From: a virus
Lineage: Duplodnaviria; Caudoviricetes
DNA: 64,000 nucleotides
Direction: 5' to 3' (one strand)
Virus record (IMG/VR): IMGVR_UViG_3300049052_000033
Location: 8,365-72,364 of that record
Shown: positions 16,326 to 59,333 of the stretch, piece by piece
Position numbering within the stretch: the stretch's first letter is position 1
Layout of the letters: each line of letters begins with the position of its first letter
Notes under the pieces: model-generated
Seen by the model: the letters and a program-made list of their open reading frames with translations, nothing else
Database searches by the model: none
What the model was told of the DNA's origin: nothing
Program-made: the position numbers and the translations under genes

Positions 16326-16513
16326 CCACGATCATCCAGCACACCGAAGACTACGCCGCGCTTCGCGCCACCGCCTATCCGCCTCTGGCCGACTTCGCCG
16401 ACGCCATGTACTGGGCGGCGAAGGGCGACACCACCAAACTTGAGGCCTACCACGCACGGGTGGAAGCCATCAAACAGCGCTTTCCCAAACCGCCCGCGGC
16501 CGCCCCGGACTAA
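16322..16513 (+). CDS. Small hypothetical protein (63 aa)
   Basis: ATGA overlap; stop codon forms start of promoter motif. Confidence 0.65.
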   Translation: MTTIIQHTEDYAALRATAYPPLADFADAMYWAAKGDTTKLEAYHARVEAIKQRFPKPPAAAPD

Positions 16514-16545
16514 ATCCCAAGTTTTTCGGGATCCACTCCTATCAT
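16511..16545 (+). promoter_or_regulatory. Conserved phage promoter copy 1 (TAAATCCCAAGTTTT-N14-TATCAT)
   Basis: 15-mer repeated six times in window, each 14 nt before a -10-like hexamer. Confidence 0.7.
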
Positions 16546-16591
16546 CGCTCGCGAACGCAGGCCGTCGCCTGCACCGAACCGAAGGGACCCC

Positions 16592-17161
16592 ATGAAGAAC
16601 TTTCTGCGCATCGCCGAGGGCGTTGACATTATTCCACTGCTGCTGGCGATCAAGCGCCAACCCGAAATGTGGCGCGAAGACACGTACTTGCGCAGCTATC
16701 CGCAGGGGCCTTTCGGGGAAGTGGAATCCATCATGCTGCGCTTCCCCGAGCGTACCGTACACGAAACCGAAGAACTGATGCGCCAGCACCTGGCCGTGAC
16801 GGACCAGCACGAAAGCATCGACTACCCACCATATAAACGCCTGCCGGAAGCGCGCGCGCTGATCATGCAACTGATGACCCGCGTGGCCGGCGAGCGCCTG
16901 GGGCGCTGCATGATCAACAAGATCGCCCCGGGCGGCCGTATCTTCCCGCACGCCGACACCCCGGCGCATGCCGAGTACTACGACCGCTTCCACCTGGTAC
17001 TGGAATCGAACCCACAGTCGAGCTTCCGCGCCGGCGACGAGGTGGTCAACATGGCCGTCGGCGAAGTCTGGTGGTTCGACAACAGCATCGAGCACGAAGT
17101 GGTGAACCACGGCGATTGCGATCGCATCCATTTAGTCATTGATATCCGAACATCGAAATGA
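16592..17161 (+). CDS. Aspartyl/asparaginyl beta-hydroxylase-family 2OG-Fe(II) oxygenase
   Basis: IFPHAD (HxD), RFHLVL, WWFDN...HEVVN...RIHLVID. Confidence 0.85.
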   Translation: MKNFLRIAEGVDIIPLLLAIKRQPEMWREDTYLRSYPQGPFGEVESIMLRFPERTVHETEELMRQHLAVTDQHESIDYPPYKRLPEARALIMQLMTRVAGERLGRCMINKIAPGGRIFPHADTPAHAEYYDRFHLVLESNPQSSFRAGDEVVNMAVGEVWWFDNSIEHEVVNHGDCDRIHLVIDIRTSK

Positions 17162-17679
17162 ACACCATCACCTACCAGGTGGAGCGCTGGGCGGCGTTTG
17201 CCGCCGACGCGCAGGACCTGTTCCGCCAGCACTGGCTGGAAATCGCCTTGGGCCACGCCAAGGTGCCGCTGGACGTCGCCCATGACCGATACCAGGCCAT
17301 GTGCGATCAGGACGTGTTGCACATCGTGACCGTGCGCGACAACGGCCGGCTGGTCGGCTACCACGTGGCAATTGTCAGCGGCCACCTGCACTACGCCAGC
17401 ACGCTGCATGGCATCACCGACGTGTACTACCTGCTGCCGAAGTACCGCCGCGGCCGCACAGGTATCCGCCTGTTCCAGCGCGTCGAGGCGGAAATGCGGG
17501 CGCTGGGCGTGGAAAAGCTGTTCACCGGCGTGAAGCTGCACACCGCTGACGGCCAGAGCGGGCGCCTGTTTGAGTATCTGGGCTACACGCCGACCGAAAC
17601 CCTGTACACCAAGCTGCTTGGTGACGAGGGCTTCGCCACTCCCCACGAAACCATGTACATCAAGCAGATCGGAGACTGA
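17158..17679 (+). CDS. GNAT-family acetyltransferase-like protein
   Basis: YYLLPKYRRGRTGIRLF acetyl-CoA motif; LFEYLGY. Confidence 0.75.
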   Translation: MNTITYQVERWAAFAADAQDLFRQHWLEIALGHAKVPLDVAHDRYQAMCDQDVLHIVTVRDNGRLVGYHVAIVSGHLHYASTLHGITDVYYLLPKYRRGRTGIRLFQRVEAEMRALGVEKLFTGVKLHTADGQSGRLFEYLGYTPTETLYTKLLGDEGFATPHETMYIKQIGD

Positions 17680-17680
17680 C

Positions 17681-18472
17681 ATGCGCACCAAGCTTCGCGC
17701 CGAATCCAAACACGAACTGCGCCTGAGCGAAGGCAGTCAGTTCTGCCACGTGGCCGCCGCCATGGTGGGCGCCGCGGTGGTGGGCGGCGTCGCGTCCAAC
17801 GCGGCAGCCAAAAAGGGCGCCAAGGCCATGGATCGTGCGACCGACCAGAACGCCTACCAGGGTGAGATCGCCAAAGACCAGTACGAGGACTACAAGGAGA
17901 ATTACCGTCCCCTCGAGCACCAGCTGGTCAAAGAGGCGCAGGACGCCGATTCCGAAGCGGCGCAGGAGAAGGCAGCGAGTGCGGCAGCGGCCACTGTGTC
18001 GAGCCAGATCGGGCTGGCCAAGGAACGGCTGGCGCGCACCCCGGGGCTGGACCCGTCCAGCGCCGCCGCAGCAGCAGCAGCGTCCGACCTGGCGCTGAAA
18101 GGCGCCGCCATGGGGGCCAACGCCCAGAATACGGCGCGGCAGCAGACCAAGGACATGGCCTACGCCAAGAAGATCGACGCCGTATCGTTGGGCAAGGGGC
18201 TGTCGGCCAGTGCCGGTGCCGGTCTGGCCAGCGCTTCCGCCGGCGCCAACGCACTCGCGGCGTCGCAGCAGAGCCTGGCGGGGCAGCAGGCCGCCGGCAT
18301 CGGCCAGATGACCAGTGGCCTGATCAACGCGTTCGGACGGATGGGCCAGACCTCTCCGGGCCTGAGCATGCCGAAGGCCGACTACACCAATACCTTCACC
18401 ACCACCGATACCGGCCTGCCAAGTTCGCCGACCGGGATGGGAAGCGGGGCGCCCGACGTCGGGTACGCCTAA
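17681..18472 (+). CDS. Small internal virion (DNA ejection) protein
   Basis: Ala/Gly-rich, VAAAMVGAAVVGG N-terminal segment; GGAG RBS. Confidence 0.7.
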   Translation: MRTKLRAESKHELRLSEGSQFCHVAAAMVGAAVVGGVASNAAAKKGAKAMDRATDQNAYQGEIAKDQYEDYKENYRPLEHQLVKEAQDADSEAAQEKAASAAAATVSSQIGLAKERLARTPGLDPSSAAAAAAASDLALKGAAMGANAQNTARQQTKDMAYAKKIDAVSLGKGLSASAGAGLASASAGANALAASQQSLAGQQAAGIGQMTSGLINAFGRMGQTSPGLSMPKADYTNTFTTTDTGLPSSPTGMGSGAPDVGYA

Positions 18473-18493
18473 CTGAACAGAAAGGCACCACAG

Positions 18494-20178: not shown

Positions 20179-23100
20179 ATGAACCTGAACGAAGCACGCC
20201 AACGAATTCCGGCCCTGGCCAATCTCAACGATCAGGACGCAATCGACGTCCTGCAACAGCACTACTATCCCGATATCGACAAGGCGCAGCTGGCGCAGGC
20301 CTTGGGCGTGCAAACGCCCCAGGTCGACCCACCGCAGGCTGGCGTACTACGCACGGCCGGCGATATGGGGATCAAGGTGGCACAGGGCGTGGTTGGACTG
20401 GGTCAGGCCGCTGTCGGCCTGGGCAGTCTGGCCACGGGCGGGCTGGTCGGCAAGGGCGCGCGCGCGCTGGGCTACGATCCGCAGCGCACCAAGGAAATCC
20501 TGGGTGAGTACCTGAGCGATAGCCAGAAAGCGTCCGATGCCAAGGTCGCCAACGCCGATGGCTTCGTGGACACGATCGCCGCCTCCCTGTCCAACCCGCG
20601 CGCGCTGTTCGGCAGCGTCGCCGAATCGGCCCCCGGCATGTTGGGAGGCATGGGCGTGGCCCGTGCTGCAGCCGGCAAGATCGCCGCGCGCGCCGCACTG
20701 GCCCCCACCGAGGGCGCCGCCGCCAGCGCCGCAGAACTGGCGGCAGGGCGTTCCGCCGCTTCGGCCGCCCAGGCAGCCCTGCGCACCAAGGCTGGCGCGC
20801 AGGCGGCCACCGACGCCGTCGAGGCGGCCGGTACCCGCCTGATGGTCACCGGGTCCGCCGTGGAAGGGGCCCAGACTGCGGGCCAGATTGCCGACGACGC
20901 GCAAGCGGCCGGCCGCAGCTACGGCGAATACGCCTTGCCGGCACTGGCAGCCGGCGTCGGGACAGCCGCCATCGGGGTGGGCGCCGGCAAATTCATGGGC
21001 GACAGCGCGACCCAGCTGGCTACCGGCGCGCGATCGACGGGCGTGCGCGGCAGCCTGCCGGCGCGCATTGCCAAAGAGGCGCTGAGCGAGGGTGTACTGG
21101 AGGAAATGCCCCAGTCGGCGCAAGAACAGGTGTGGACCAACGCCGCCATGGGCGAGGCCGACCTGTCCAAAGGTGTCGGCAATGCCGCCGGCGCCGGGCT
21201 GATCACGGGCGCTGCCATGGGCGGCGGTCTGGGCGTGCTGCAGGGGGAAGCGCACCACGCCCCCACGCCGGCACCGGTTCAGCTGCCCAACACCGGACCG
21301 CTGTCACAAGCAGCCAACGCCGGGCAAGCCGCAACAGCCGCCAAGGCCCAAGCCAACGCCACGGTGCCGCAGGCCCCGAGCCCAGCCCAGCCATCGCTGC
21401 AGGAAATTGACGACAGGATGGCCGCCCTGGTCGCGATCGGCTCCGGCAGCCTGGCACGCAAAGAGCGCGACGCCGCCGGCAACCTGGTGACGATCCCGGC
21501 CGTGGCCGGGCGCCGCCTGACGACGGACGAAATCGCCGAATACAACCGCCTGAAGCAACTGCGCACCGAGCGCACCACCCTGACGCCCGCCCAGCAGGCA
21601 GAATTCAACCAGCTGCTGGCCGCCGAACAGGAACAGCACAACGCCAAGCATGCCGCAGCCATGGCCGCTGCCGCCGAGCAGCGTAACAAGGCTGAGGACG
21701 CCGAACTGGCCTCCTTGATGGCGCAGGACGAACGCGCGCGCCAGCAGGCCGAAGCGCAGCAGCTGGCCGACGCGATCGCCGCCAGCGACGCGCGGGTGGC
21801 CGCCGGTGACGCGCGACGTGCCGCCGACAAGCGCGCCGACCTGCGCACGGGGATCATCAATGATGCGGGCATTGCCGTGGCCGATCGCAAGCAGGCGTTC
21901 GCCGATCGTCTGCGGCAGGAGGGCTATCACAGCACCGCTTTGACCGACGACGATCATGCCGATTTCGACCAGGCCGCCGCGCCGCTGTCCAGCGCGCCCA
22001 ACGAACTGCAGGACGCGGTCCCGGAACGCGTCGCACCGCCTGTTGCGACTGCGGACACACCCAACCTGCGCGCGGTGGACGACGCGATCGCCGCCGGCAT
22101 GCGCCTGAAAACGGCCAACGGCAAGGTGCTGCACAAGCCCGGGTCCAGCAAGATTTTCCGCCTGAACAGCGCGCAGCTGGCCTATTACCAGGAAGCGATC
22201 AACCGCCCGGCAGTGGCGCAACAGGCGCCCGCGCCGTCCACGGCCGTCCCCACGGTCGAACCTGTGAGCCCGGCGCCCGAACAAACCGCGGCCTCGCCGA
22301 TGCTGGCCAACGCCCCACCCATCGCGCCGGCCAGCGACGACGGCTTTGACGCCGCTGCCCATGCGGCGGCGACCTCGCCCCACAACGACCTGCCCGAGCC
22401 GACCCCAGCCCAAAAAGAGGCCGGGAATTACAAGGTCGGCCATGTCAGGCTTCATGGGCTGGACCTGTCCATCGAGAACCCCGTGGGGTCCGTGCGCCGC
22501 GGCGTCGACCGCGACGGTCAGGCGTGGGAGTCCACCATGCAGCACCATTACGGCTACATCAAGGGCACGGTAGGCGCCGACAAAGACCACATCGACGTGT
22601 TTGTGGGGCCGAACCGCGACAGCGACAAGGCGTTCGTAGTCGACCAGGTGCATCCCGACAGCGGCAAGTTTGATGAACACAAGATCATGCTGGGCTTCGA
22701 CTCCGTCGAGGCGGCGCGCGCCGGCTACCAGGCCAATTACGACGCCAGCTGGACCGGCGGGCGCAACATCAGCGAAACGAGCATCGCCGGACTGAAGGAC
22801 TGGCTGGCCAGCGGCAAAACCCGCAAACCATTTACCAAACTCCCATCCGCCGCCCCGGCAGCGGAACCGATGGTCGCCGTGACTCCACCGGTGTCCCGCC
22901 AAGCGCTGAACCACCTGACCGTCGCCGACATGAACGACGACCAGCTGCTGCAGGCCAGGAGCGTGTTTGCCGGACATGCGCGCGAACCGAAGATCCTGCG
23001 CGAGCTGGTGCGGCGCGGGCTCGACGCGTCGGCCGCCGCACCGGGCGCGCCTGCGCCTGCAGCGGTCACGCAGACCGACTCCGCCACCACGAGTGTGGAA

Positions 23101-26100
23101 CCCGATGCCTCGGGCAAACTTGCCAACGCCACGGCGCCGGAACACGTTCAGACCGGCGTCGATGACCGGGAGCTGGGCGAAATCGTCGCCGAGTTCAATG
23201 AGGCACAGGCGGAGATGATGGAGGGCGACCACGTCGTGTCCAACATCTTCCAGCCGCCGGCCAAGCGCGACATTGTGCGACTGGCGGACAAGGCGAAAGG
23301 CAAGCTGTGGAACCCGGTCGAGGTGAAAGCCTACAACAAGGACCTGGCCGCACGCGACGAGCTGGAAAAGGAAGGTCAGCCGGTACCGGCCGAACTGGCC
23401 AAGCGCATCAGGGACTTCGAAGCCGTGTATCTGCCGCATGTGGCGAAGCTGCAAGCCGAAGCGCAGGCCGAAATCGGCGCGTGGAAGGCGCACGCGCAAG
23501 CACAGGGCCTGGACCCGGAAACACGCCGCGCCAACGGCCGCAAGATCGTGCTGTCGCTGTTCGACCTGTCCGGCGAATGGTCCAAACCATGGCTGGAAGC
23601 GGGCTATCAGGTGTATCGCTTTGACATTCAGGACGATCCCGAAGTGGGCGACGTCAACAACTTCTCGTCGGAATTCTTCAGCGACTGGTTCGGTGACTTC
23701 GACGGACTGGATATTTACGCCATCCTTGCCGCCACGCCGTGCACCGACTTCGCCGTCAGCGGCGCGCGCCACTTCGCCGCCAAGGACAAGGACGGCCGCA
23801 CCGTGGCCAGTGTCAAGCTGGTGCACCAGACCATGCGCACCATCGAGTACTTCAAGCCTGTCATCTGGGGCATTGAAAACCCGGTCGGGCGCATCGAAAG
23901 CCTGGGCGGGCTGCCGCCATGGCGACTGGCATTTGACCCGAACCATCTGGGCGACTCGTACACCAAGAAAACCCTGATCTGGGGACGCTTCAACGCCGAC
24001 CTGCCGGTCGCTCCGGTCGAGGCGACCGAAGGCAGCAAGATGCACAAGCAGTACGGCGGCAAGAGCATGGCCACCAAGAATGCGCGTAGCGTGACACCGG
24101 AAGGGTTCTCGTATGGCTTCTTCATGGCCAACAACGCCGTCGACCACCCTGTGATGGCGGTGGCCAACACGTTCGACCGTCTGGACCGTGACGCGATCGC
24201 CGAAGCCATGCGCGCCGGCGTGACGGAAGAAGAAATCCGGGACGCCGTGCAGGACCTGTACTACATGGATCTGGACGACGATGCCGCCAACGACGCCATC
24301 CGCGCCCTGACCCGTGAGCACGCGACCGAGCCGGATCCAGATCCGTCGCCGACCCAACCCCGCGGCAAGCAGGACGACACCGTGTCAGCCCCTGACGCGA
24401 CACTGGCCGACAAAGCGGGACCGGCGGGCGATGACGCAGTGGCCACCGCGGCGCGCGACGATGCGCTGCAGTTCTCGCGGCGCCGTATCGACACCGACGA
24501 CCAGCTGGTGAACATCTACAGCCAGATCGCGCAGGACGACGCGGCCTTCCGCCTGCCCGACAGCCAAGGCAAGACGCTGGCCGCTGTCGTGGGCGACATG
24601 GCACCCGGTATCGTGGTCGATGGCGATGTTGAGATCGACCTGACCACGGCCGACGGGCCGAACGCCGACCGCGTCTGGCGCCTGCGCCGCGGCGACGGCG
24701 CCGGTGGGGACGCCCTGGTGTTCCGCAACACGCGCAACAAACAGGTCTGGCTCAATATTTCGAACTGGAAGGAGGGCCGTAGCGGCCACCGCATCTACCA
24801 GGCGATCGCCACCTGGGCCCACAACACCGGACAGGTATTCATCGGCGACCCGGATGGTCTGTCCGATAAGGCGCTGTACCGTCGCACCGAGCAAATGCTG
24901 TCGTCCGCGCTGCGCCACGGCACCACCGAGCACTTGGCGCCCCACGCACGCCAGGTCGAGGACACCCGCACCCACACGGGTACACCGGTGCGTCCGATTC
25001 ATTGGCGCGAAGGCAACGATGCACGCAACTTGCGGGAACTGCTGGTTTCGTCCTACACTAACATTTCTGCAATTTTCCCTGAAATCGAACGTGTCCATTA
25101 CAACTTCGCCACTGGCCAGTTTGAACGCCTCCCGGCATCCGTTCGCGCACCTGAGCACGATGTACTGGCTCACGCTGCCGCTGGCGGAGAACGCGCTGCT
25201 GAAGAAGGGGTGGGACGCGGAAGCGATCGAGGCGCTGCCGGACACGGAATTGCTCGCGCTGATGAAGCAGACGGGCAGTTCGCACGAGTGGATGCAGTTC
25301 CTTTCACCGACGAGGATTTCGCAGCTCTTGTCCGGGAAGTTCGAACAGCTTATGAACAGTTCTACCCATCCTCCCGAGGAGCTTACACGCCACCGGTTGG
25401 CGTGTCTGATCTTAAGAGAGCGGCACTTACCGGCACCGTTCTACGCGCAGAAGGAAGCGACGCAGGGCGAACGGTTCTGGATCACGTTGCAGAGCGGCTG
25501 CTACAACGAGTAAGCATCCCGCTGGAGTCGCTGCTGTATAGCCGCGACGCCGCCTATTTCCGCCACGACGACGCCTTCGCCCCGCCAGCCATTGAGCAGG
25601 GCGATACGGTCGGCGACACGCCGCCGGCCGCACTGGCCGGGCATGAGTACGTCCAGGCGCTCAAGGACACCGAGCAGCTGAACCGCCGCCTTGCCGGCGA
25701 AGGCATGGCGCCGGTCAAGGCGCTGCGCCAGGCCCCCACCACGCAATTCGCCATGGCGCGCCAGATCGGCAAGGCCTTGGGTATCCGGGTCCAGTTCGTA
25801 TCGGGCAATGGCGACTTCGAAGGAGTTGCCACCGGCGGGGTGGCCTATCTGGCCAACGATATGCGCCAGCCTGCACTGGCCATTGCCGGCCACGAGACCC
25901 TGCACGCCCTGGAGCAAAGCAATCCCGCACTGGGCGAGCGCCTGCGCGCGCAGATCCGCAGCTACCTCAAGGAAGGAGTGGTGGATGACCGGCAGGCGCG
26001 CGAATATGCGGCCAGCGGCTTTCAGGAAGTCACCGAGCGGCAGGCCGAAAGCGAGGTCCTGGCCGATATCAACGGCGCCATGTGGCTGGACCCGGGCTTC

Positions 26101-29100
26101 TGGGCTGCATTGGCCAAGGCCGACCGCTCGCTATTCCGCACGGTGGCCTACAAGTTCATGGAAGTGGCCACGTCCCTGCTGGCGTCCCTGCGCCGCGGAC
26201 GGTTCGACGTGACGCAACTGGTGTCGGACGTGGATGCGGTGCGCAACATTATGGTGGCGACCTGGGCCGAGCATACCCGTAGCCGGGACGCACTCACGCA
26301 AGACACAGCGCGCCGCGCGGTGCCGGTCTATGCGCCGGCACTGGACGGCTTAGTGGCGCCAGAACAGCAGCTGTCGACCGACGCGCTGCACCAGCTGGCG
26401 GACGCGGTCGTAGCGCCGCTCGCGCATCCGCCGCAAATCTTCGTTCTGGATGGCCCGGAATTCCTCGACCGTCATCTGGTCGGGGCTGGCGAGGCGCCAG
26501 TGAGCGCGGGGGCGACGATCGGCGGCAAGATTTACCTGTTCCGTAACGGCATTTCCAGCCGGGATAGCGCGGCGGCCACGATCTGGCATGAGTTGTTCCA
26601 CTATGGGCTCCGAAAACTGATGACGCCGGATAATTATGTTTCGGCAATGTCGAAATTGTACAACATCGACCCACAGGTGAAGGCCTACGCCGATCGCTGG
26701 AAGGCGACCGAGGATGCGGCGACGCGCCATCGGTCCGGGGTCAGCGTGACCGACATGCACGTGCTGGCGGTGGAAGAAGCGCTGGCCGTGATGGCCGAGG
26801 AACAGCGCAACGGCAAGCCGGTCGGCACCCGCTATGCCACCGAAAGCCACATCGGCCGCATGCTGCTGTGGATGGTCAATACCGCCCGCAGCATGGGTCT
26901 GGACCGCGTGGCCGAAGCGCTGCGCAAACTGACCCGGGCGCAGGGCCAGGTGTTCGTGGAAAGCATTTTCGACCGCATCGCCGCCGGCGAACGGGAAGTC
27001 GAGGGTGCCATGGCGTCGCTCGACGGCCGCAGCATCAACTTCCGCGCAGCCGATGGTGCCCGACCTGCCACGGACAGCGACAACTTCCGCGCCTGGTTTG
27101 GTGATAGCAAGGTGGTGGACAAGGACGGGGAACCCTTGGTGGTCTACCACGGCACCACCCGTGACTTTTCCACGTTCGATATCGGCGAACCCTTCGGCGA
27201 CAAAGAGGCAGGCGCGTTCTTCACCGCCGATCCGGGCGCCGCCAGCGCCTACGCGCACAAGGAAGGCGGGCGCGTCATGCCGGCATTCCTGCGCATTGAG
27301 CACCCTTACGTCACCACGGTAGAGGACTGGGAAAGCGGCGCGGCCAGTTCAGTGGACGCCATCAAACACGAGGGCCGGCATGATGGCTATCAGGTGAAAG
27401 GCTGGTCGGACGCGGGCGACATGTGGATCGCGTTTGAGCCCGAGCAGATCAAGTCCGCGATCGGCAACGACGGCAGCTTCGATGGCGAGAACCCGGATAT
27501 CGCGTTCAGCCGTGCAGGGCTGGCCGCGGCGCTGGGCAAGGCCGCCGGCAACATTGAAAACGTGCGCCTGCCCGCCGGCTACCTGCTGGGCGACCTGTTC
27601 AACCGCAGCGGCAAGATCAGCTGGTGGCATAAAAGCATCGGCACCATGGACAACCTGGCGCGTCGCCAGCCGCTGTTCGCGCCGGTGTACCGTGCCGTGC
27701 AGGGCTTCCTGGGCGACGTGTCGCGCTATGCCGTCGTGGCAGCCAACAAGGCCCCCACCCTGTTGCCGAAGCTGGAAAAAGTCGCCGACATCCTGGGCAA
27801 GGACCGCAAGAAGCCCTTGACGGCGGAGGACACCAAGGCCATCAGCGCACCGATCTTCGAAGGCACGCTGGTGTGGGCGCGCGACGCCCACGGCAAACCG
27901 GTCAAACTGGCCGAGCTGGAAGCATGGGCCGACGGCCTGACGACCGCCCAGAAGGCCGATATCCTGCTGCAGAAGGGCATCATTGATGACGAAACGAATC
28001 AGGCCTGGCTGCACAGCCCGCTGGATCACTACGATGAAAGCATCAATCGCCGCTTCACCACCACGCAGCTGCAGGCCGGCGTGGTATGGAGCGATGCGGA
28101 GCTGCGCGAGCTGTTCCAGCTGGACGACCGTCGCATTGGCCTGTACCGCGAATTCCGCGCGGCGCTGGACCAGAGCCTGACCAACCTGACCATCAGCGAG
28201 ATGGTCAAGCTGGGCGGCAAGGATGCCGAAGGCACGCTGGACTACGCCATGGCGCAGCCGGACCTGCGCGGTGCTGCGCATTACCTGCGTGATCATTTCG
28301 TGGCGCTGGCCAAGCTGCACCCTGAAAAGGCGGACTGGCATCTGGATACGGCGCGCCAGATCATGGACCTGGCCGACCGCGGCCAGGACCTGATGGACCG
28401 TGGCTACGCGCCACTGTCGCGTTTTGGCAAGCACACCGTCTACGTGCAGCAGGGCGGCGACCAGGTGTACTTCGGCATGTTCGAAACCCCGTATGAAGCC
28501 GCCCGCATGGCGCGCCAGATGGAATCCGAGCACCCGGGCGCCGACGTGTCGCAGGGCACGGTCTCCGAAGATGCCTACAAGCTGTTCGCCGGCATCGCTC
28601 CGGAGACCATCGAGCTGTTCGGTTCCATGGTCGGGCTCGACAGCCAGGGTGACAGCGCAGGCAGCGAGGTGTACCAGTCGTACCTGAAACTGGCCAAGAA
28701 CAACCGCAGCGCGATGAAGCGCATGATCGAGCGCAAGGGCATCGCCGGCTTCTCGGAGGACGCCGGCCGCGTGCTGGCCTCGTTCATCTATTCGAATGCC
28801 CGCCTCACCTCGGGTAACGCCAATCTGGGCAAGATTGACGAGGCCATCACCACCATTCCGAAGCAGGAAGGCGAACTAACCGACGCCGCCATGCAGCTGC
28901 GCGAGACCATCCGCAATTCCGAAGGCGGCAACCGGCTGGGCGGCCTGATGTTCGCCCAGTTCCTCGGTGGGTCGGTGGCATCCGCCCTGGTCAACCTGAC
29001 GCAGCCGGTGACCATGACCTTGCCCTACCTGAGCCAATATGGTGGTATCGGCAAGGCCGGCCAGCGTCTCGCCGGCGCCATCCGCGATGCCGGCAAGCGC

Positions 29101-30435
29101 AGCACGGGCGACGCGAGGCTGGACGCAGCGCTGCAATGGGCCGCTGACGAAGGTATCGTGGCGCCGCAGGAAGTGCACTACCTGCAGGCGCAAGCGGCCG
29201 GCAAGGGGGCTTTGCAATCGGGCGATGGCACACGGGTCGGCAACGCCCGCGCGCAGCTGAACAACGCCTTGGCCAAGGTCCAGCTGGGCTGGGGCAAGTT
29301 GTTCGCCATGGCGGAGGAAGCCAACCGCCGGATCACCTTCATTGCGGCCTACCGCACGGCCATCGAGGAAGGCAAGTCCGACCCGGCCCGCTTCGCCGAA
29401 GAAGTCGTGACGCAGACACAAGGTACCTACAACAGCGGCAACCGACCGAAGTGGGCGCGCAACCCGGTCGGTGGCGTCCTGATGACGTTCAAGCAGTACT
29501 CCATCGGCTATCTGGAGCTGTTGACACGCATGGCTTTCGCCGGCCCACCAGGTTCGCCCGAGCGTGCCGCCGGCCGCCGCGCGGCGCTGTACATGGTCGC
29601 CGTGCTGTTCCTGATGGCGGGCGCCGATGGACTGCCGTTCGAACAGGACCTGGAAGACGCCTTGGACGGCGTCATGCAGTGCCTCGGCTACAACTTCTCC
29701 ACCAAGCGCGCCAAGCAAGAATTCCTGACCGGCGTGCTGGGCGCGGGCGGCGCCGACTTCGTGCTGAAAGGCGTGTCGAGCATGCCGGGCATGCCGATCG
29801 ACGTGGCAGGGCGCTTCGGCATGGGCAACTTGATTCCCGGTACCGGCCTGTTGACGAAGAAAGATTCGTACACGCAGGACCTGGGCGAGCTGGTCGGCCC
29901 GGCGGGTGACGTGGCCAAGCGCACGTTCGCCGCCGCAGGCAAGCTCCTGGGCGGTGACGTCGCCGGCGCGGCGCTGGACATGTCGCCGGCAGCCGTGCGC
30001 AACGCCGTCAAGGGTGCCGACATGCTGTCGACCGGTCATTACTCGGACGGGCGTGGCTACAAGGTCAACGACACCACCCCGATCGAAGGCGTGCTGAAGA
30101 TCGTCGGCTTCCAGCCAAACAGCACCGCGAATATCCAGGATGCGAAGGGGCAGGCGCTCGACATGATTAGCCAGACCCGGATGCGCTCCAAGGAGATTCA
30201 GGAGCACTGGGCGCAGGGTATTCTGGAAGGCGACGCCAGCACCATCGCCGAGGCCCGGGCGTGGCGCGACGACTGGAACGCCAAGAACCCGGAAGCGCCG
30301 GTGCGCGTGAATATGGCGGCGATCGCCAAGCGGGTGCGCAACATGCGTCAGGACGTGATGAACCGCACGCAGAAGACGGCGCCGGCCGCGCTGAAGGCGG
30401 CCGTGCGCAGCGAACTGTCCGAAACACGCGGATAA
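20179..30435 (+). CDS. Giant polyvalent internal virion protein (InPase-like, C5 DNA methyltransferase-like, two HExxH peptidase motifs, ART-PolyVal-like, PLxRFG domain)
   Basis: 3418 aa; HYGYIKGT.GADKDHIDVFVGP (~22.5 kb); LSLFDLSG/TPCTDF/IENPVG (23.5-24.1 kb); HETLH 25891, HELFH 26587; FRAWFGDSKVVD..GEPLVVYHGT (~27.1 kb); PLSRFG 28411. Confidence 0.88.
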   Translation: MNLNEARQRIPALANLNDQDAIDVLQQHYYPDIDKAQLAQALGVQTPQVDPPQAGVLRTAGDMGIKVAQGVVGLGQAAVGLGSLATGGLVGKGARALGYDPQRTKEILGEYLSDSQKASDAKVANADGFVDTIAASLSNPRALFGSVAESAPGMLGGMGVARAAAGKIAARAALAPTEGAAASAAELAAGRSAASAAQAALRTKAGAQAATDAVEAAGTRLMVTGSAVEGAQTAGQIADDAQAAGRSYGEYALPALAAGVGTAAIGVGAGKFMGDSATQLATGARSTGVRGSLPARIAKEALSEGVLEEMPQSAQEQVWTNAAMGEADLSKGVGNAAGAGLITGAAMGGGLGVLQGEAHHAPTPAPVQLPNTGPLSQAANAGQAATAAKAQANATVPQAPSPAQPSLQEIDDRMAALVAIGSGSLARKERDAAGNLVTIPAVAGRRLTTDEIAEYNRLKQLRTERTTLTPAQQAEFNQLLAAEQEQHNAKHAAAMAAAAEQRNKAEDAELASLMAQDERARQQAEAQQLADAIAASDARVAAGDARRAADKRADLRTGIINDAGIAVADRKQAFADRLRQEGYHSTALTDDDHADFDQAAAPLSSAPNELQDAVPERVAPPVATADTPNLRAVDDAIAAGMRLKTANGKVLHKPGSSKIFRLNSAQLAYYQEAINRPAVAQQAPAPSTAVPTVEPVSPAPEQTAASPMLANAPPIAPASDDGFDAAAHAAATSPHNDLPEPTPAQKEAGNYKVGHVRLHGLDLSIENPVGSVRRGVDRDGQAWESTMQHHYGYIKGTVGADKDHIDVFVGPNRDSDKAFVVDQVHPDSGKFDEHKIMLGFDSVEAARAGYQANYDASWTGGRNISETSIAGLKDWLASGKTRKPFTKLPSAAPAAEPMVAVTPPVSRQALNHLTVADMNDDQLLQARSVFAGHAREPKILRELVRRGLDASAAAPGAPAPAAVTQTDSATTSVEPDASGKLANATAPEHVQTGVDDRELGEIVAEFNEAQAEMMEGDHVVSNIFQPPAKRDIVRLADKAKGKLWNPVEVKAYNKDLAARDELEKEGQPVPAELAKRIRDFEAVYLPHVAKLQAEAQAEIGAWKAHAQAQGLDPETRRANGRKIVLSLFDLSGEWSKPWLEAGYQVYRFDIQDDPEVGDVNNFSSEFFSDWFGDFDGLDIYAILAATPCTDFAVSGARHFAAKDKDGRTVASVKLVHQTMRTIEYFKPVIWGIENPVGRIESLGGLPPWRLAFDPNHLGDSYTKKTLIWGRFNADLPVAPVEATEGSKMHKQYGGKSMATKNARSVTPEGFSYGFFMANNAVDHPVMAVANTFDRLDRDAIAEAMRAGVTEEEIRDAVQDLYYMDLDDDAANDAIRALTREHATEPDPDPSPTQPRGKQDDTVSAPDATLADKAGPAGDDAVATAARDDALQFSRRRIDTDDQLVNIYSQIAQDDAAFRLPDSQGKTLAAVVGDMAPGIVVDGDVEIDLTTADGPNADRVWRLRRGDGAGGDALVFRNTRNKQVWLNISNWKEGRSGHRIYQAIATWAHNTGQVFIGDPDGLSDKALYRRTEQMLSSALRHGTTEHLAPHARQVEDTRTHTGTPVRPIHWREGNDARNLRELLVSSYTNISAIFPEIERVHYNFATGQFERLPASVRAPEHDVLAHAAAGGERAAEEGVGRGSDRGAAGHGIARADEADGQFARVDAVPFTDEDFAALVREVRTAYEQFYPSSRGAYTPPVGVSDLKRAALTGTVLRAEGSDAGRTVLDHVAERLLQRVSIPLESLLYSRDAAYFRHDDAFAPPAIEQGDTVGDTPPAALAGHEYVQALKDTEQLNRRLAGEGMAPVKALRQAPTTQFAMARQIGKALGIRVQFVSGNGDFEGVATGGVAYLANDMRQPALAIAGHETLHALEQSNPALGERLRAQIRSYLKEGVVDDRQAREYAASGFQEVTERQAESEVLADINGAMWLDPGFWAALAKADRSLFRTVAYKFMEVATSLLASLRRGRFDVTQLVSDVDAVRNIMVATWAEHTRSRDALTQDTARRAVPVYAPALDGLVAPEQQLSTDALHQLADAVVAPLAHPPQIFVLDGPEFLDRHLVGAGEAPVSAGATIGGKIYLFRNGISSRDSAAATIWHELFHYGLRKLMTPDNYVSAMSKLYNIDPQVKAYADRWKATEDAATRHRSGVSVTDMHVLAVEEALAVMAEEQRNGKPVGTRYATESHIGRMLLWMVNTARSMGLDRVAEALRKLTRAQGQVFVESIFDRIAAGEREVEGAMASLDGRSINFRAADGARPATDSDNFRAWFGDSKVVDKDGEPLVVYHGTTRDFSTFDIGEPFGDKEAGAFFTADPGAASAYAHKEGGRVMPAFLRIEHPYVTTVEDWESGAASSVDAIKHEGRHDGYQVKGWSDAGDMWIAFEPEQIKSAIGNDGSFDGENPDIAFSRAGLAAALGKAAGNIENVRLPAGYLLGDLFNRSGKISWWHKSIGTMDNLARRQPLFAPVYRAVQGFLGDVSRYAVVAANKAPTLLPKLEKVADILGKDRKKPLTAEDTKAISAPIFEGTLVWARDAHGKPVKLAELEAWADGLTTAQKADILLQKGIIDDETNQAWLHSPLDHYDESINRRFTTTQLQAGVVWSDAELRELFQLDDRRIGLYREFRAALDQSLTNLTISEMVKLGGKDAEGTLDYAMAQPDLRGAAHYLRDHFVALAKLHPEKADWHLDTARQIMDLADRGQDLMDRGYAPLSRFGKHTVYVQQGGDQVYFGMFETPYEAARMARQMESEHPGADVSQGTVSEDAYKLFAGIAPETIELFGSMVGLDSQGDSAGSEVYQSYLKLAKNNRSAMKRMIERKGIAGFSEDAGRVLASFIYSNARLTSGNANLGKIDEAITTIPKQEGELTDAAMQLRETIRNSEGGNRLGGLMFAQFLGGSVASALVNLTQPVTMTLPYLSQYGGIGKAGQRLAGAIRDAGKRSTGDARLDAALQWAADEGIVAPQEVHYLQAQAAGKGALQSGDGTRVGNARAQLNNALAKVQLGWGKLFAMAEEANRRITFIAAYRTAIEEGKSDPARFAEEVVTQTQGTYNSGNRPKWARNPVGGVLMTFKQYSIGYLELLTRMAFAGPPGSPERAAGRRAALYMVAVLFLMAGADGLPFEQDLEDALDGVMQCLGYNFSTKRAKQEFLTGVLGAGGADFVLKGVSSMPGMPIDVAGRFGMGNLIPGTGLLTKKDSYTQDLGELVGPAGDVAKRTFAAAGKLLGGDVAGAALDMSPAAVRNAVKGADMLSTGHYSDGRGYKVNDTTPIEGVLKIVGFQPNSTANIQDAKGQALDMISQTRMRSKEIQEHWAQGILEGDASTIAEARAWRDDWNAKNPEAPVRVNMAAIAKRVRNMRQDVMNRTQKTAPAALKAAVRSELSETRG

Positions 30436-30438
30436 GGC

Positions 30439-30463
30439 AAAGGCCCCTCGCGGGGCCTTTTTT
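30439..30463. terminator. Bidirectional terminator between convergent late and early arms
   Basis: AAAGGCCCC-TCGC-GGGGCCTTT-TTT. Confidence 0.8.
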
Positions 30464-31163
30464 ACAGCAGCAGCAGCGCCTGCTGCGCGGTACCGGCGAC
30501 CGCCGTGTGCACCCTGGCGTCGCTGCCTCGCCGGTAACCATGGTGGCGGTGCAAGTTGGGCGAATGCCGTTCAGGCAGGTCGCGTTCGGACGGTTTCAGG
30601 ACGCCCAGCTGGGCATGGTGGGTCAGCATGTAGGCCTGGACCGCCGTCATATCGTGCGCCGGCGGCGGCCCTGCATTGAGCAATCGGTATACCGCCAGCA
30701 CCCAGCCATCGCAGAAGGCGTCCGCTGCGGCCAGCTTGTTCTTGCGGTAGCGCTTGAGCTTGGTGGCGCTGTATTCGGCACGGCCCTTGGCCAGCTGGCG
30801 GCGCAACACCGTGAAGGTATAGGCGGCCACGTCGGCGCCAGCCCCGGCGCCGACAAAGACCCAGAGCCCTTCGATATCGCGGTTGTCGGCCCGCGGCCGG
30901 GTCTTGAACAGGGTGTCGCAGCCGAAGCTCTCCGCGACCATGCTGGCCAGCGCGCATTCGTAGCCTGCTGGCCGCCGCTTGGCCTGGCTCCGCACATCCT
31001 TTTCGGCCACCCCGGCCGCCAGCAGTTCCGGCTGGTCGACATTGAAGCGCACCATCAAGGCCCGCGCCTGGCTGAGTGCACGCGCCACTTCCTCGGGGAA
31101 GCTGGACCCTTCCGCCCTTGCCAGGCACGCGCGGATCTTGCGCAGGGCATCCTTCCTATCCAT
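30462..31163 (-). CDS. DUF2786-domain protein
   Basis: ALRKIRACLARA...PEE...AL.QARALM..FNV N-terminus. Confidence 0.8.
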   Translation of the reverse strand: MDRKDALRKIRACLARAEGSSFPEEVARALSQARALMVRFNVDQPELLAAGVAEKDVRSQAKRRPAGYECALASMVAESFGCDTLFKTRPRADNRDIEGLWVFVGAGAGADVAAYTFTVLRRQLAKGRAEYSATKLKRYRKNKLAAADAFCDGWVLAVYRLLNAGPPPAHDMTAVQAYMLTHHAQLGVLKPSERDLPERHSPNLHRHHGYRRGSDARVHTAVAGTAQQALLLL

Positions 31164-31524
31164 GCTCTGGCCCTTTCCCTGGCGTCGGTTCTCCGCTGCA
31201 GGCAGGGCAGAAGGGATTGCGCCCCTTGCCGGTGCACAGCGGGTGGTGGCCCGGCATGGCGCCCGGCACCGTCTTGTCGAGGACGACATGGGCCGTGCAT
31301 TCCCGGGTGGGGTAGGGCGCTGTCGACGGCGCCGCGAAGGCTTTTAGGGCAGCCCGGTGCTCGAGCAAAAATTCCTCTATGTCGGCTTCCGCCGATGTGC
31401 AGGCGCGGCGATAGGTCTGCAGTGTGTCGGGCATGAAGCGCCGCGCGTGCATCAAGTCACGTTTCAGCCGGCGCAGCAGGTCGAAGGCTGCCACGGCAAG
31501 GTCATGTTGCTGTTGTTCGTTCAT
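31156..31524 (-). CDS. Hypothetical protein with C-terminal Cys/His cluster
   Basis: Start MNEQQQ; overlaps downstream gene. Confidence 0.6.
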   Translation of the reverse strand: MNEQQQHDLAVAAFDLLRRLKRDLMHARRFMPDTLQTYRRACTSAEADIEEFLLEHRAALKAFAAPSTAPYPTRECTAHVVLDKTVPGAMPGHHPLCTGKGRNPFCPACSGEPTPGKGPEHG

Positions 31525-31543
31525 CCACAATTCCTCGTCATCT

Positions 31544-32179
31544 TCACGGCGCCACCGCGTCGGGCGGCGAAAAGTCGTAATCGCACGGCGGCAAGGTGCG
31601 GCCGGTCGCGCGCTCAAAGCGGTCCACGATGCGGCGTACCGCGAACCACCCGTAGCAGATGCGGTTCGCCCGTCCATGCCGATCTCGGTGGCAGTGGCAC
31701 AGAAATGGCACGTCTTCGGTGACGGCTTTCTGCACGTCGAGCTGGGTCTGGGCGCAACCGTTGGGCACCGTCCCTGCGCGAAACGCGCAGCTCTGGCAGC
31801 GCTCATCCTGTTCCCCCTCCCGCATCAGGGTGGCGATTTCGGCGTCCGCCAGCCGGGCCATCACGGCGCCGGCCTGCCGGCCTGCTGCGCTGACACGGCG
31901 GTGGGCATGCGCCGCCGGCACATGCTGTTCTGCGGGACGGGTGCCGGTGGACGCCGCCACCACCACCGCCTGGCCCTTGCTGCCAATCTGAAGGCACAGG
32001 CGCGACAGGCCGCCGCTGCCGGGGCCATAGTCGACCCGCCACTGGTCGCCGGGGTCGGTTTCGCCGGATAGAAAGACCACTGTCCCCGTTTCGCCGGTCG
32101 GATGGCGAAGCGTGTCGCCGGCATGGATTGGAGAGCCCGCGTAGTCGGGCCAGGGCGCATGCACCCGCACGCCCGCCAT
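31544..32179 (-). CDS. Hypothetical protein with Cys-rich C-terminal domain (CxxCAF...FLCH...C.GW)
   Basis: TAATG coupling to upstream gene. Confidence 0.6.
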   Translation of the reverse strand: MAGVRVHAPWPDYAGSPIHAGDTLRHPTGETGTVVFLSGETDPGDQWRVDYGPGSGGLSRLCLQIGSKGQAVVVAASTGTRPAEQHVPAAHAHRRVSAAGRQAGAVMARLADAEIATLMREGEQDERCQSCAFRAGTVPNGCAQTQLDVQKAVTEDVPFLCHCHRDRHGRANRICYGWFAVRRIVDRFERATGRTLPPCDYDFSPPDAVAP

Positions 32180-38156: not shown

Positions 38157-38191
38157 AGTGTCAGGGTAATCCCGGGAAAACTTGGGATTTA
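38157..38191 (-). promoter_or_regulatory. Conserved phage promoter copy 2 (TAAATCCCAAGTTTT-N14-GACACT)
   Basis: Exact 15-mer; same spacing. Confidence 0.65.
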
Positions 38192-39432: not shown

Positions 39433-39467
39433 AGTATCCGGCCGTCTTCGCTAAAACTTGGGATTTA
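39433..39467 (-). promoter_or_regulatory. Conserved phage promoter copy 3 (TAAATCCCAAGTTTT-N14-GATACT)
   Basis: Exact 15-mer beginning at stop codon of upstream gene. Confidence 0.65.
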
Positions 39468-39941: not shown

Positions 39942-39976
39942 ATAGTAGGAGTGGTGCGCGGAAAACTTGGGATTTA
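39942..39976 (-). promoter_or_regulatory. Conserved phage promoter copy 4 (TAAATCCCAAGTTTT-N14-TACTAT)
   Basis: Exact 15-mer beginning at stop codon of upstream gene. Confidence 0.7.
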
Positions 39977-40217: not shown

Positions 40218-40252
40218 ATGATAGGACCGCTTGGCGAAAAACTTGGGATTGC
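40218..40252 (-). promoter_or_regulatory. Conserved phage promoter copy 5 (GCAATCCCAAGTTTT-N14-TATCAT)
   Basis: 13/15 match; shares TCCTATCAT with copy 1. Confidence 0.65.
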
Positions 40253-41455: not shown

Positions 41456-41486
41456 AGGGGCCTCCTTGAATGGATGAGATAGGGAC

Positions 41487-41514
41487 ATGATAGGGAGGAA
41501 AGACCATGTTTCAA
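41487..41514 (-). promoter_or_regulatory. Sigma70-like promoter for PRTase-SLOG pair
   Basis: TTGAAA-16-TATCAT on minus strand. Confidence 0.5.
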
Positions 41515-41568
41515 GAGCACTATGTCAGATTGCTGAAAAAATATCTTGGTTGCCTTGAATCGGCAGTG

Positions 41569-41598: not shown

Positions 41599-41661
41599 GC
41601 TAGACGAGCGTTAAAAGCAGGCGTAAAGTTTCAAAACTCACATTCTCTGAAGGATTAAAAC

Positions 41662-41904: not shown

Positions 41905-41931
41905 GCGACACCACGCACAACGGAATTCACC

Positions 41932-53038: not shown

Positions 53039-53057
53039 TTACAACGTTTCGTTGTAA
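53039..53057. promoter_or_regulatory. Operator in cI/cro intergenic region
   Basis: Perfect TTACAACG-TTT-CGTTGTAA. Confidence 0.8.
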
Positions 53058-53063
53058 ATGGCA

Positions 53064-53105
53064 CTTCAATATTTTGTTGTAGAAACCCCTCTGTTGTTTT
53101 AATAT
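53064..53105 (+). promoter_or_regulatory. Second operator (53064-53082) overlapping pR-like promoter
   Basis: CTTCAA-N7-TTGTAG; TTGTAG-17-TAATAT. Confidence 0.7.
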
Positions 53106-53140
53106 TTTGGTTCAATAGTTTTTGCCAATGGAAACAGGAA

Positions 53141-57877: not shown

Positions 57878-58124
57878 GACGATGACCGCCCTGAACCCAA
57901 ACCGCCTGATGGACGCCGTAATTGACAAGCTGCAGTTGAAAAACGACGCCGCCCTGTCGCATGCACTGGAAGTGGCGCCGCCCGTCATCAGCAAGATTCG
58001 CCACAACCGCCTGCCGGTAGGTGCCAGCCTGATGGTCCGCATTCACGAAATTGCCGGCATGTCGTTCCCGGACATGCACCAGCTGCTGGGGACCGTCGGC
58101 TACAAGCCGTATGCAGCTGTGTGA
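57867..58124 (+). CDS. Small XRE-like HTH protein
   Basis: LKNDAALSHALEVAPPVISKIRHNRLPVGAS; AAGGAG RBS. Confidence 0.8.
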   Translation: MSNETMTALNPNRLMDAVIDKLQLKNDAALSHALEVAPPVISKIRHNRLPVGASLMVRIHEIAGMSFPDMHQLLGTVGYKPYAAV

Positions 58125-58371
58125 CTGGTGCCTGGCACTTGGGGGCAGGTTTCATGCCGCCCGCGAGTGCTGCCAGATACGGATGCTTGCCGGCGCCCCG
58201 TACCAGGCGCGCCTGCAGGCCTACGATCAGGCCCGTCGCGAAGGTGGGCCCAAAGGACTGCAGGAATTGAAGGCCAAGGTGAAGGCCGAGCACGAACGAC
58301 AGAACGTAAACCGCGTCGCCCTGGCTAAAGCGGCCATGGCGAAGCTCAAAGAACTGACGAAAGCGAAGTGA
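58111..58371 (+). CDS. Small Cys-containing protein
   Basis: CDWC...ECC; overlaps neighbours. Confidence 0.5.
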   Translation: MQLCDWCLALGGRFHAARECCQIRMLAGAPYQARLQAYDQARREGGPKGLQELKAKVKAEHERQNVNRVALAKAAMAKLKELTKAK

Positions 58372-58913
58372 ACATGGGACAGAAACGACATGGCGGCAAC
58401 GCCAGCAAAGCACGCCGCAAGAAGGCCTACCGTCCACGCGCCGCGTTGCCCGGCGGTGGGCTGCAGGTGCTGGTGAACTGCGAAGACCGCTTCCGCAAAC
58501 GCGAGTGGGAACGCAAGCTCAATAGCCCGTATGACCCCGAAAATCTGACCGACCTCGGCACCGCCTACTGGGCTGCTTTCGAACAGCTGAAACTGCATGC
58601 GGCGACCGAAGACGCCTGGGCGCAGGTTTGCGTGGCGTCCAACTGGGGCATGCTGCTGTGCGAACAGGTGTTCGATGACGACTATCTGGACACCTTCGTG
58701 ACTGCGCAGGAAGCGCTCTTTCGCGCCAAGCAACGCGGCGATGCCAGCGGCAGCTTCCGGCTGGACGGGGAGGGGCTGAAAGCGGTCAGTACCATGCTGC
58801 AGGTGCACGACGAGCAGATGAAGCTGGTCACGCCGGCCGACCTGATGCGGGCCAACGACACGATGCAGCAGCGCTTCGCCGATGGCCACGTGTACAGCAC
58901 TGCCACCGCCTGA
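58368..58913 (+). CDS. Hypothetical phage protein (181 aa)
   Basis: Basic N-terminus, helical core. Confidence 0.65.
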   Translation: MNMGQKRHGGNASKARRKKAYRPRAALPGGGLQVLVNCEDRFRKREWERKLNSPYDPENLTDLGTAYWAAFEQLKLHAATEDAWAQVCVASNWGMLLCEQVFDDDYLDTFVTAQEALFRAKQRGDASGSFRLDGEGLKAVSTMLQVHDEQMKLVTPADLMRANDTMQQRFADGHVYSTATA

Positions 58914-58935
58914 CCCCACCACACGAGGAGCACAC

Positions 58936-59292
58936 ATGCGATTCCCAGAACGGAACTCCCGCGGCGAGAAGATCCTGCAAGCGTTCTTCGCGCGCGGCCC
59001 GATGACCATTTACCAGGGCGAGGAAGCGCATGGCTCCTTCGCCACCCCCAGCTTCCCCGATGGCATCGAGCATGAACGCTTGGTCGCGCTGTATTGCGAC
59101 CTGGTCGACCGTGGCTGCCTGATCCGCGAGGGCATCAAGTATCGCCTGTCGCTGGCCGCCCAGCACCGCATGGAGAAGGCCAAGAGTGAGAGCGAGCCGC
59201 TGTCGATCGTACCGCCGCGCATTCGTGACTTCTTCGCCAAGCCGCTCCGCATCGGCTATTCTCCCGGGCTGCCGTGGCGCCTTGCACTGTAA
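58936..59292 (+). CDS. Hypothetical protein (118 aa)
   Basis: GAGGAG RBS. Confidence 0.65.
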   Translation: MRFPERNSRGEKILQAFFARGPMTIYQGEEAHGSFATPSFPDGIEHERLVALYCDLVDRGCLIREGIKYRLSLAAQHRMEKAKSESEPLSIVPPRIRDFFAKPLRIGYSPGLPWRLAL

Positions 59293-59298
59293 GCGACC

Positions 59299-59333
59299 TA
59301 AATTCCAAGTTTCTGCGGATTCGCTCTTAGACT
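59299..59333 (+). promoter_or_regulatory. Conserved phage promoter copy 6 (TAAATTCCAAGTTTC-N14-TAGACT)
   Basis: 13/15 match; same spacing; precedes Q-like gene. Confidence 0.6.

Follow-up and report, generated by a model that had tools for sequence, protein, structure and literature searches.

Motif promoters and the genes behind them

The window analysed here, 64,000 nucleotides (nt) in length, comprises bases 8365-72364 of the 72,364-bp IMG/VR virus record IMGVR_UViG_3300049052_000033. It carries a family of six predicted phage promoters, in each of which a 15-nt box stands at a constant distance before a -10 hexamer, and the last of them lies upstream of the gene of a 152-amino-acid (aa) helix-turn-helix protein, P0001, the best candidate for the reader of the box. 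The two ends of the record share an overlap of ~135 nt, so the genome is either circular or terminally redundant. Its portal, terminase and capsid genes show ~35% identity to HMO-2011-type podoviruses. The gene content includes a Rep/PriCT replicase, ParA, ParB, two tyrosine recombinases, cI, a CII-like and a LuxR-type protein, and DNA methylases. Given its replication, partition, recombinase and cI genes the phage is temperate, and the same gene content makes it probably a phage-plasmid. We refer to the genome as G000 and to its motif promoters as sites 1-6; coordinates are those of the window unless prefixed with G000:C1.

Re-scanning the window returns the coordinates, strands and hexamers of the six copies as the initial annotation gave them. 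The family was there presented as six copies of one 15-mer; the six sites stand, but only four are exact copies of TAAATCCCAAGTTTT (16511+, 38177-, 39453- and 39962-), the other two differing by two mismatches each (GCAATCCCAAGTTTT at 40238- and TAAATTCCAAGTTTC at 59299+). No exact copy occurs in 100 shuffled sequences, and the matches with at most three mismatches number six against 0.34 expected; the 8.3 kb of the genome outside the window contain no additional copy. Exactly 14 nt past each box follow the hexamers TATCAT, GACACT, GATACT, TACTAT, TATCAT and TAGACT (sites 1-6). The A in the second position (A2) and the T in the sixth (T6) are invariant in all six, for which the chance is ~1.6e-9 at one fixed offset and ~3e-8 after allowing 21 offsets, at ~63% GC. 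Non-coding DNA makes up ~9% of the genome and holds all six copies. As had been claimed, every copy is oriented with transcription and three (16511, 39453 and 39962) start on the TAA stop of the preceding open reading frame (ORF). A start codon lies 26-46 nt past the hexamer in the same direction at each of the six sites, with a Shine-Dalgarno-like sequence before most of them.

Site 1 (16511..16545, plus strand; 15-mer at 16511-16525, 14-nt spacer, TATCAT at 16540-16545) heads an operon of Asp/Arg-hydroxylase-like, GNAT, T7 gp14-like, 549-aa and 3418-aa polyvalent ejection protein genes. The 3418-aa protein (20179-30435) contains LPD37, inorganic pyrophosphatase and ART-PolyVal domains and a weak C5-methylase-like module, and its homologues in related phages range from 2014 to 6204 aa. 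Sites 2-5 are on the minus strand. Site 2 (38157..38191; exact 15-mer, N14, GACACT) precedes a 128-aa ORF at 37744-38130 (-) and the genes downstream of it; site 3 (39433..39467; exact 15-mer, N14, GATACT) precedes a lipoprotein gene at 38844-39422 with the lipobox LSAC; site 4 (39942..39976; exact 15-mer, N14, TACTAT) precedes the gene of a 148-aa four-helix, multi-pass membrane protein at 39465-39911; and site 5 (40218..40252; variant box, N14, TATCAT) precedes an ORF of ~70 aa ending at 39974. Site 6 (59299..59333, plus strand; variant box, N14, TAGACT) heads the P0001 gene (59364..59822, +) and a tyrosine recombinase gene. We considered a lysis cassette behind sites 2-5, but the endolysin, a spanin-like gene and a possible holin (an unannotated ORF at 11096-11554) are found at 11096-12663 on the other strand. 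Because the genes behind sites 2-5 encode a membrane protein, a lipoprotein and small soluble products, this reading was rejected.

Conservation among relatives and the class of promoter

Relatives of G000 are found in Massilia and Janthinobacterium and have genomes of the podophage or phage-plasmid type. The relative in Janthinobacterium sp. S3T4 (G005 below) is a separate 70.8-kb contig, classed by IMG/VR under direct terminal repeats, and homologues of P0001 with 42-84% identity occur on contigs of ~70-80 kb. The analysis covered 17 IMG/VR loci and ten whole relatives (G001-G010), which make 11 genomes together with G000. Many metagenomes of soil and rhizosphere contain near-identical DNA. 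Among deposited phages, none was matched by a megablast of 25 kb; scanning IMG/VR for exact 14-mers returned single chance matches only and is uninformative, and a search for related loci with the 549-aa ejection protein as the query found none. A metagenome scan added at least five new distant loci, with a box upstream in none among the matches listed.

A motif scan of this and related genomes, the check that the initial annotation had proposed, finds the box, the 14-nt spacer and the TAnnnT hexamer again at orthologous positions in at least ten genomes. The element is kept as CTAAAT-T-CYAAGT-TTT-N14-TAnnnT in at least ten related Massilia/Janthinobacterium-type genomes; as judged from these comparisons it is a clade-wide cis-element, which exceeds what had been claimed for it. 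An unbiased scan with the 9-nt core YYAAGTTTY yields 48 matches in the 11 genomes, 30 of which are followed by a.A...T hexamer at offset 14, where 1.7 are expected; every other offset from 5 to 25 has at most four. The full set drawn from the 11 genomes comprises 35 sites, 31 of which were regex seeds with A2 and T6 as a selection criterion, and it is the core offset scan that serves as the unbiased test. A2 and T6 are present in 35 of 35 sites (selected for in 31), and T in the first hexamer position in 24. The consensus of the set is C-T-A-A-A-T-T-C-Y-A-A-G-T-T-T-T, with AAGTTT almost invariant. We interpret the box as two similar half-sites, CTAAAT and CYAAGT, placed 7 bp apart. The spacer (16526-16539 at site 1) is semi-conserved; counted back from the hexamer, the favoured bases are A at -9 and -8, C at -6 (in 31 of the 35 sites), G at -5 and a further C at -4. 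Around the box many sites have a dyad, either T4-N4-A3/4 or the partial one AATCCC/GGGATT.

The copy before the P0001 homologue is present in nine of the 11 fetched genomes (G000, G001, G002, G004, G005, G006, G009 and G010, and G003 with the variant box CTAAAAAGTAAAGTTC), and also at the loci L137 (GC 45%) and L194 (Massilia frigida). Site 6 is thus the most conserved copy of the family; its hexamer reads TAGACT in seven genomes (six relatives besides G000), whereas G009 has TAGAAT and G003 has TATCAT. The ejection-operon position is occupied in eight genomes (G000, G001, G002, G003, G005, G007, G008 and G009). Other copies in the relatives precede small accessory genes. The homologue of the site 3 lipoprotein gene stands behind a motif promoter in G002, and in G009 it lies just downstream of the Q-like gene, as we call the gene of P0001 and its homologues, behind the promoter of the latter. 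For a consensus leader hairpin before the Q-like gene, RNAalifold predicted zero consensus pairs.

The 15-mer was initially said to cover the -35 position without a TTGACA, and this holds throughout the set: with a spacing of 16-18 nt, each of the 35 sites agrees with TTGACA in 1-3 of 6 positions at best, and one has a TG-extended -10. A bare sigma-70 -10 needs an activator or a substitute for the region-4 contacts. Canonical promoters in the same phage form a contrast class: TTGAAA-16-TATCAT (41487..41514, minus strand, upstream of site 5) precedes the 206-aa and 199-aa genes, and TTGAAA-18-TATGAT precedes parA. The promoter at 41487..41514 points to the use of the host -35 element elsewhere in the phage. 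In two rhizosphere RNA-library runs, sizeable contigs within 30000-42000 appear only at 40161-40878 (depth 15-39). What they cover is the 199-aa gene that follows the canonical promoter, upstream of site 5, with little of the motif-driven genes; contigs cannot show transcription starts. They suggest that the 199-aa gene is expressed in the carried state; silence of the box promoters in the state sampled is hinted at weakly at best.

The combination of box and hexamer has four matches in the genome of Janthinobacterium sp. S3T4 (6.1 Mb), two of them on the phage contig, against four for a reversed-pattern control, and one match against four in Massilia frigida. Outside the phage contig these matches are at chance level in both host genomes, so the element is phage-specific and is not the common host repeat that the initial annotation had allowed for. 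Two other placements of the promoter -10 were rejected: in the 5' half of the box (TAAATY) A2 is not conserved across relatives, and the spacers are GC-rich and contain no TAnnnT. With spacers that are GC-rich and coding DNA before them, no separate promoter exists upstream, which would leave the hexamer itself as the promoter -10. The ejection-operon site of G005 comes directly after an intrinsic terminator, as does, in G004, a weak match of 12.8 bits in the same position; initiation would therefore be needed there. The comparative evidence makes it very probable that the sites are real, conserved, factor-dependent promoters. Of the activator-dependent regulon originally proposed, the comparative data support a phage-specific, -35-less promoter family with a probable dependence on an activator.

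Candidate regulators and the late operon

The initial annotation had named the LuxR-type, CII-like and Q-like proteins as candidate activators. A tblastn search with the regulators against the ten relatives finds only P0001 and a second protein, p118, in all ten, whereas the LuxR-type protein is present in three, the CII-like protein in six and cI in eight. The distribution appears to cut the candidates from three to two, and only the Q-like protein was among those named at first. A virion RNA polymerase within the 3418-aa ejection protein was also considered as the reader of the sites and rejected, as Pfam shows no polymerase domain in it.

The predicted structure of P0001 (pLDDT, the predicted local distance difference test score, 75.6) consists of an N-terminal helix, a conserved segment predicted to be disordered and a helical domain similar to sigma region 4, a fold resembling that of Q21. 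The segment predicted as disordered spans approximately residues 25-53, and L33, R35, K40, G43, P46, A48, R49, N50, M54 and F57-A60 are invariant. Disorder is thus predicted for the stretch that the family conserves best, residues 33-60, as would be expected of a part that folds on a partner. The nearest Atlas clusters of P0001, its neighbours in a protein language model, carry PF06530 Phage_antitermQ (score 0.95), and P0001 is 36.5% identical (E 9e-16) to the annotated antiterminator Q of Xanthomonas phage PBR31. In PBR31 and at the loci L139/L141 (35% identity) and L202 (45%), the 160 nt after the homologue hold a sequence resembling a promoter, together with one or two strong intrinsic terminators. 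By its layout this is the arrangement of a canonical Q cassette, and it gives independent support from gene context. The late-promoter region of PBR31 contains no recognisable copy of the box. In G000 a recombinase gene begins 45 nt after P0001 and the motif promoter is upstream of P0001; the downstream arrangement of promoter, pause and terminator is not found there.

Promoter-like sequences with tandem intrinsic terminators after the distant homologue occupy L139 10355-10520, the like position in L141, L202 3382-3560 and L197 4929-5044. In L139 a CTACACA direct repeat lies upstream of TGTATGAT, and it may be a Q-binding element particular to that clade.

The second candidate binder or co-regulator, p118 (58936..59292, +), abuts promoter 6. 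It has 118 aa counted from its real start at 58936, is modelled as a MarR/PadR-like winged helix and matches no Pfam family. Its C-terminal tail is conserved as F-x-K-P-L-x-x-G-Y-S-P-x-x-P-W-R-x-A-L. A homologue of p118 stands beside the Q-like gene in most relatives examined, and 6.5 kb away from it in L137.

In most of eight genomes the late operon has sense-strand intrinsic terminators at several points: ahead of terS, behind terL, portal and the major capsid gene, and again ahead of the lysis genes. On the antisense strand there are almost none. Long-loop terminators were found with our own stricter stem and T-run script; the standard scan missed these. The pattern is alike in G001-G005 and G009, and few terminators occur in the incomplete G006. 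In the window, one terminator follows the major capsid gene (4127..4150, +; CGCCCACttcgGTGGGCG and then a T-run), one lies inside the late operon just before the lysis genes (11088..11112, +; GCCCGCctcgtGCGGGC and then a T-run) and one ends the late operon after the 3418-aa gene (30442..30463, +). Two strong sense-strand terminators (G000:C1 4731-4757 and 5132-5157) are located between a cluster of three tRNA genes and terS, with no promoter after them, so the expression of the head genes seems to require read-through of terminators.

The tRNA genes upstream of terS (G000:C1 4440-4722, L125), outside the window, are read by ARAGORN as one with the four-base anticodon cagg, Gln-ttg and Asn-gtt. 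A perfect 12-bp inverted repeat, GCGGGTTTTCCC ... GGGAAAACCCGC (G000:C1 4308-4348, L125), is located where a 238-aa gene on the minus strand, an interruption of the rightward array, has its 5' end; the repeat could be an operator or a bidirectional element. The cI-cro intergenic region (53040-53125) contains TACAACGTTTCGTTGTA and related TTCAATATTTTG repeats, probably immunity operators and unrelated to the 15-mer. A small ORF at 35500-35871 (-) carries an H-NS C-terminal domain (Pfam E 5.7e-11) and may encode a phage protein similar to xenogeneic silencers.

A proposed mechanism, its rivals and known systems

The sites would be sigma-70-type promoters with a TAnnnT -10 and the 15-16-bp box CTAAAT-T-CYAAGT-TTT in place of the -35 element. 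With a transcription start ~7 nt past the hexamer, the box would extend from about -41 to -27. P0001 bound to it would take the position of sigma region 4, or that of Q on the Q-binding element (QBE), with the hexamer held by sigma region 2. In Q21 the C:G pairs of the QBE are at -21 and -13 and the bubble extends from +3 to +15 (PMC6606751). By our own derivation from these coordinates, the distance from the end of the QBE to the -10-like hexamer is ~12 nt; here it is 14 nt, and by this analogy the box and the Q21 QBE would occupy essentially the same place on the polymerase. We incline, if only slightly, to the reading in which P0001 reads the box as a substitute for the -35 element and region 4, and probably remains on the polymerase as an antiterminator; binding, activation and antitermination by P0001 are all steps that we infer.

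The first P0001 would be supplied by read-through of the early rightward operon. It would then activate its own promoter at site 6, the ejection operon (site 1) and the four accessory cassettes (sites 2-5). As site 6 is upstream of the Q-like gene, the circuit would enter positive feedback once the first protein is made, and site 6 would be the equivalent of PR' for a late unit of ~45 kb that starts with the Q-like gene. The Q cassettes of the homologues and the terminators of the late operon, two of them directly before terS, suggest that P0001 probably makes the polymerase terminator-resistant. A bolder form of the proposal, which we regard as possible though doubtful, is that the loading site of a Q21-like antiterminator and the promoter have become one. 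With its binding element in place of the -35, the protein would first recruit sigma-70 polymerase to promoters that are inactive by themselves and then ride with it through the many terminators of the ~45-kb unit. The Q gene in first position would act as a positive-feedback latch, and additional loading promoters would be spread genome-wide, before the ejection operon and the accessory cassettes.

Several results weigh against P0001 as reader and antiterminator. HMMER searches link neither P0001 nor the A1 members nor 107 homologues to PF06530, PF03589 or Q21, so membership of P0001 in PF06530 is unsupported, and a profile search of PDB sequences with P0001 did not find Q21. Variants of the box show no pattern of covariation with the recognition helix of P0001, and G003 and G009 have near-identical recognition helices and different boxes. 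G000 lacks the elements of a canonical Q unit, that is, a promoter with a -35 followed by a separate pause element; no terminator was seen directly after the motif promoters; and a minus-strand gene and ~10 kb separate site 6 from terS. Furthermore, p118 co-occurs with the motif to the same extent as P0001, both being present in ten of ten relatives.

The trans-acting factor might then be p118 or another phage protein, working at the box as a class II activator or a repressor, with P0001 only a member of the regulon or acting elsewhere. The constancy of p118 in the relatives, its position against the most conserved copy of the motif and its predicted MarR/PadR-like winged-helix DNA-binding fold would fit such a role, a dimer would suit the partial dyads seen at several sites (AATCCC...GGGATT, TTTTCCGGAAAA), and in PBR31 the gene immediately before Q likewise encodes a putative regulator. 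That gene, orf012, has no sequence similarity to p118, however, the dyads are missing from half of the sites, and the L137 homologue is 6.5 kb distant from both the motif and the P0001 gene. The asymmetry of the box and its strict orientation to the -10 agree better with a monomeric reader of the sigma-region-4 type than with a MarR-type dimer, and we consider this explanation unlikely. It is less likely still that the hexamer is a sigma-dependent pause element and that the sites load the Q-like protein in mid-operon on polymerases started far upstream. The succession of box, 12-14 nt and -10-like hexamer does reproduce the geometry of the Q21 QBE and pause, as we derive it, site 1 is inside the long late operon, and sites 2-5 are downstream of the canonical promoter at 41514. 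Sigma-dependent pausing is promoter-proximal in all described Q systems, though, and the terminator immediately upstream of the ejection-operon site in G005 (in G004, before the weak match) calls for new initiation at that point; the 14-nt spacer is GC-rich and contains no promoter -10.

A role similar to that of stoperators was the alternative offered by the initial annotation: the 15-mer would be a repressor site that silences the units in the lysogen, and the promoters would otherwise be constitutive. The sites are asymmetric, lie at gene junctions and are oriented with transcription, as such sites would be, and the RNA contigs on the gene upstream of site 5, with little on the motif-driven genes, lend this a weak hint. 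Against it, the operators of the cI-cro switch are different, TACAAC-N5-GTTGTA palindromes, and the region has no box at 12 bits or more. Promoters without a -35, and with an upstream TG in one of 35 cases, should not fire unaided, and a distance of 14 nt fixed in 30 of 48 core matches is a property of promoters and not of stoperators. We consequently set this alternative aside as very improbable. Reading of the sites by a host alternative sigma, such as the flagellar sigma-28, with no phage factor involved, strikes us as more improbable again. The sigma-28 -35 element, TAAAGTTT or TCAAGT, resembles CYAAGTTT, the core AAGTT(T) is similar to the consensus of FliA promoters, the G003 variant reads GTAAAGTT, and candidate host FliA promoters of the form AAGTC-N12-GCCGATA were seen. 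A FliA promoter has the -10 element GCCGATAA ~11 nt after TAAAGTTT, whereas the hexamers here are TAnnnT, not GCCGATAA, none follows GCCGA, and the spacing is ~2 nt longer. Box and hexamer are at chance level in two host chromosomes, and the motif is kept in the relative with 45% GC, the host of which is probably quite different.

With P0001 as the preferred reader, the system shares much with lambdoid Q and Q21. In each a small regulator has a fold similar to sigma region 4, the late operon contains sense-strand terminators and the regulator gene lies at the end of the early rightward operon. As in Q21, the site is asymmetric and resembles a direct repeat (CTAAAT/CYAAGT with period 7 here, two TGAGCA with period 8 in Q21), and it is located 12-14 nt upstream of a TAnnnT hexamer that, by analogy, would be held by sigma region 2. 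In contrast to Q21, no separate -35/-10 promoter precedes the hexamer, which would itself be the promoter -10, the site stands before the regulator gene and not after it, each genome has six sites and not one, no terminator directly follows the site, and HMMER gives no match to PF06530 or Q21. To our knowledge, all Q proteins described so far work at one canonical promoter, which lies downstream of the Q gene, and we know of none for which a combined mode of activation and antitermination has been described.

The sites are also similar to those of T4 MotA/AsiA in joining a good sigma-70 -10 with a phage box that replaces the -35 at a fixed distance, in many copies per genome. The MotA box, by contrast, is ~9 bp long and centred near -30, and it depends on AsiA, which remodels sigma region 4; no MotA/AsiA homologue turned up in Pfam or PHROG scans of the ORFs searched, and the predicted sigma-region-4/Q21-like fold of P0001 is not that of MotA. 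With the stoperators of cluster A mycobacteriophages the box has in common that it is a short asymmetric repeat at gene junctions, oriented with transcription; stoperators, however, match the repressor operator and have no fixed link to a -10, whereas here the cI operators differ and N14-TAnnnT is strict.

Regulators similar to sigma region 4 and Q21 also control late clusters of phage origin: GafA and GafYZ in Rhodobacter and Caulobacter, and BrrG in Bartonella (PMC11150451; bioRxiv 10.1101/2024.11.20.624540). GafY autoregulates and acts on ~20 promoters with a degenerate -35, and GafZ and BrrG antiterminate (PMC11150451; bioRxiv 10.1101/2024.11.20.624540). Unlike the system proposed for P0001, GafY binds far upstream and requires IHF, and BrrG serves one canonical promoter, TTGACA-N17-TATCAT, which is followed by a -10-like element; compared with these gene transfer agent (GTA) regulators, the box here is at the -35 position itself and the system resides in a phage or phage-plasmid. 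The late activators of Gram-positive phages, the RinA, ArpU, LtrC and DUF1492 families, are also small sigma-like proteins; their genes immediately precede the late operon, and late transcription depends on them (PMC3753634). The Atlas neighbours of P0001 include DUF1492 clusters, but no sequence relationship to these families is detectable, and their members as a rule serve one promoter before terS, in other hosts.

Phage late-gene switches are textbook models of transcription control, and the kinds of element involved here, Q cassettes, MotA-type replacement of the -35 and regulators of the GafY/BrrG type, are already known; the system is not categorically new. It ties a Q-like protein to a multi-copy, -35-less promoter class, its own promoter included, in a clade of Oxalobacteraceae soil podophages or phage-plasmids with at least ten genomes. 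With it, late or accessory transcription units of these phages can be annotated by a simple sequence rule, and its promoter of 35 bp and factor of 152 aa are candidate compact orthogonal parts for high-GC Betaproteobacteria. If P0001 reads the box, this would be a new wiring of the classic late-gene switch, and a natural system in which to study how factors similar to sigma region 4 change between activator and antiterminator roles, a question that applies equally to the GTA regulators GafA, GafYZ and BrrG.

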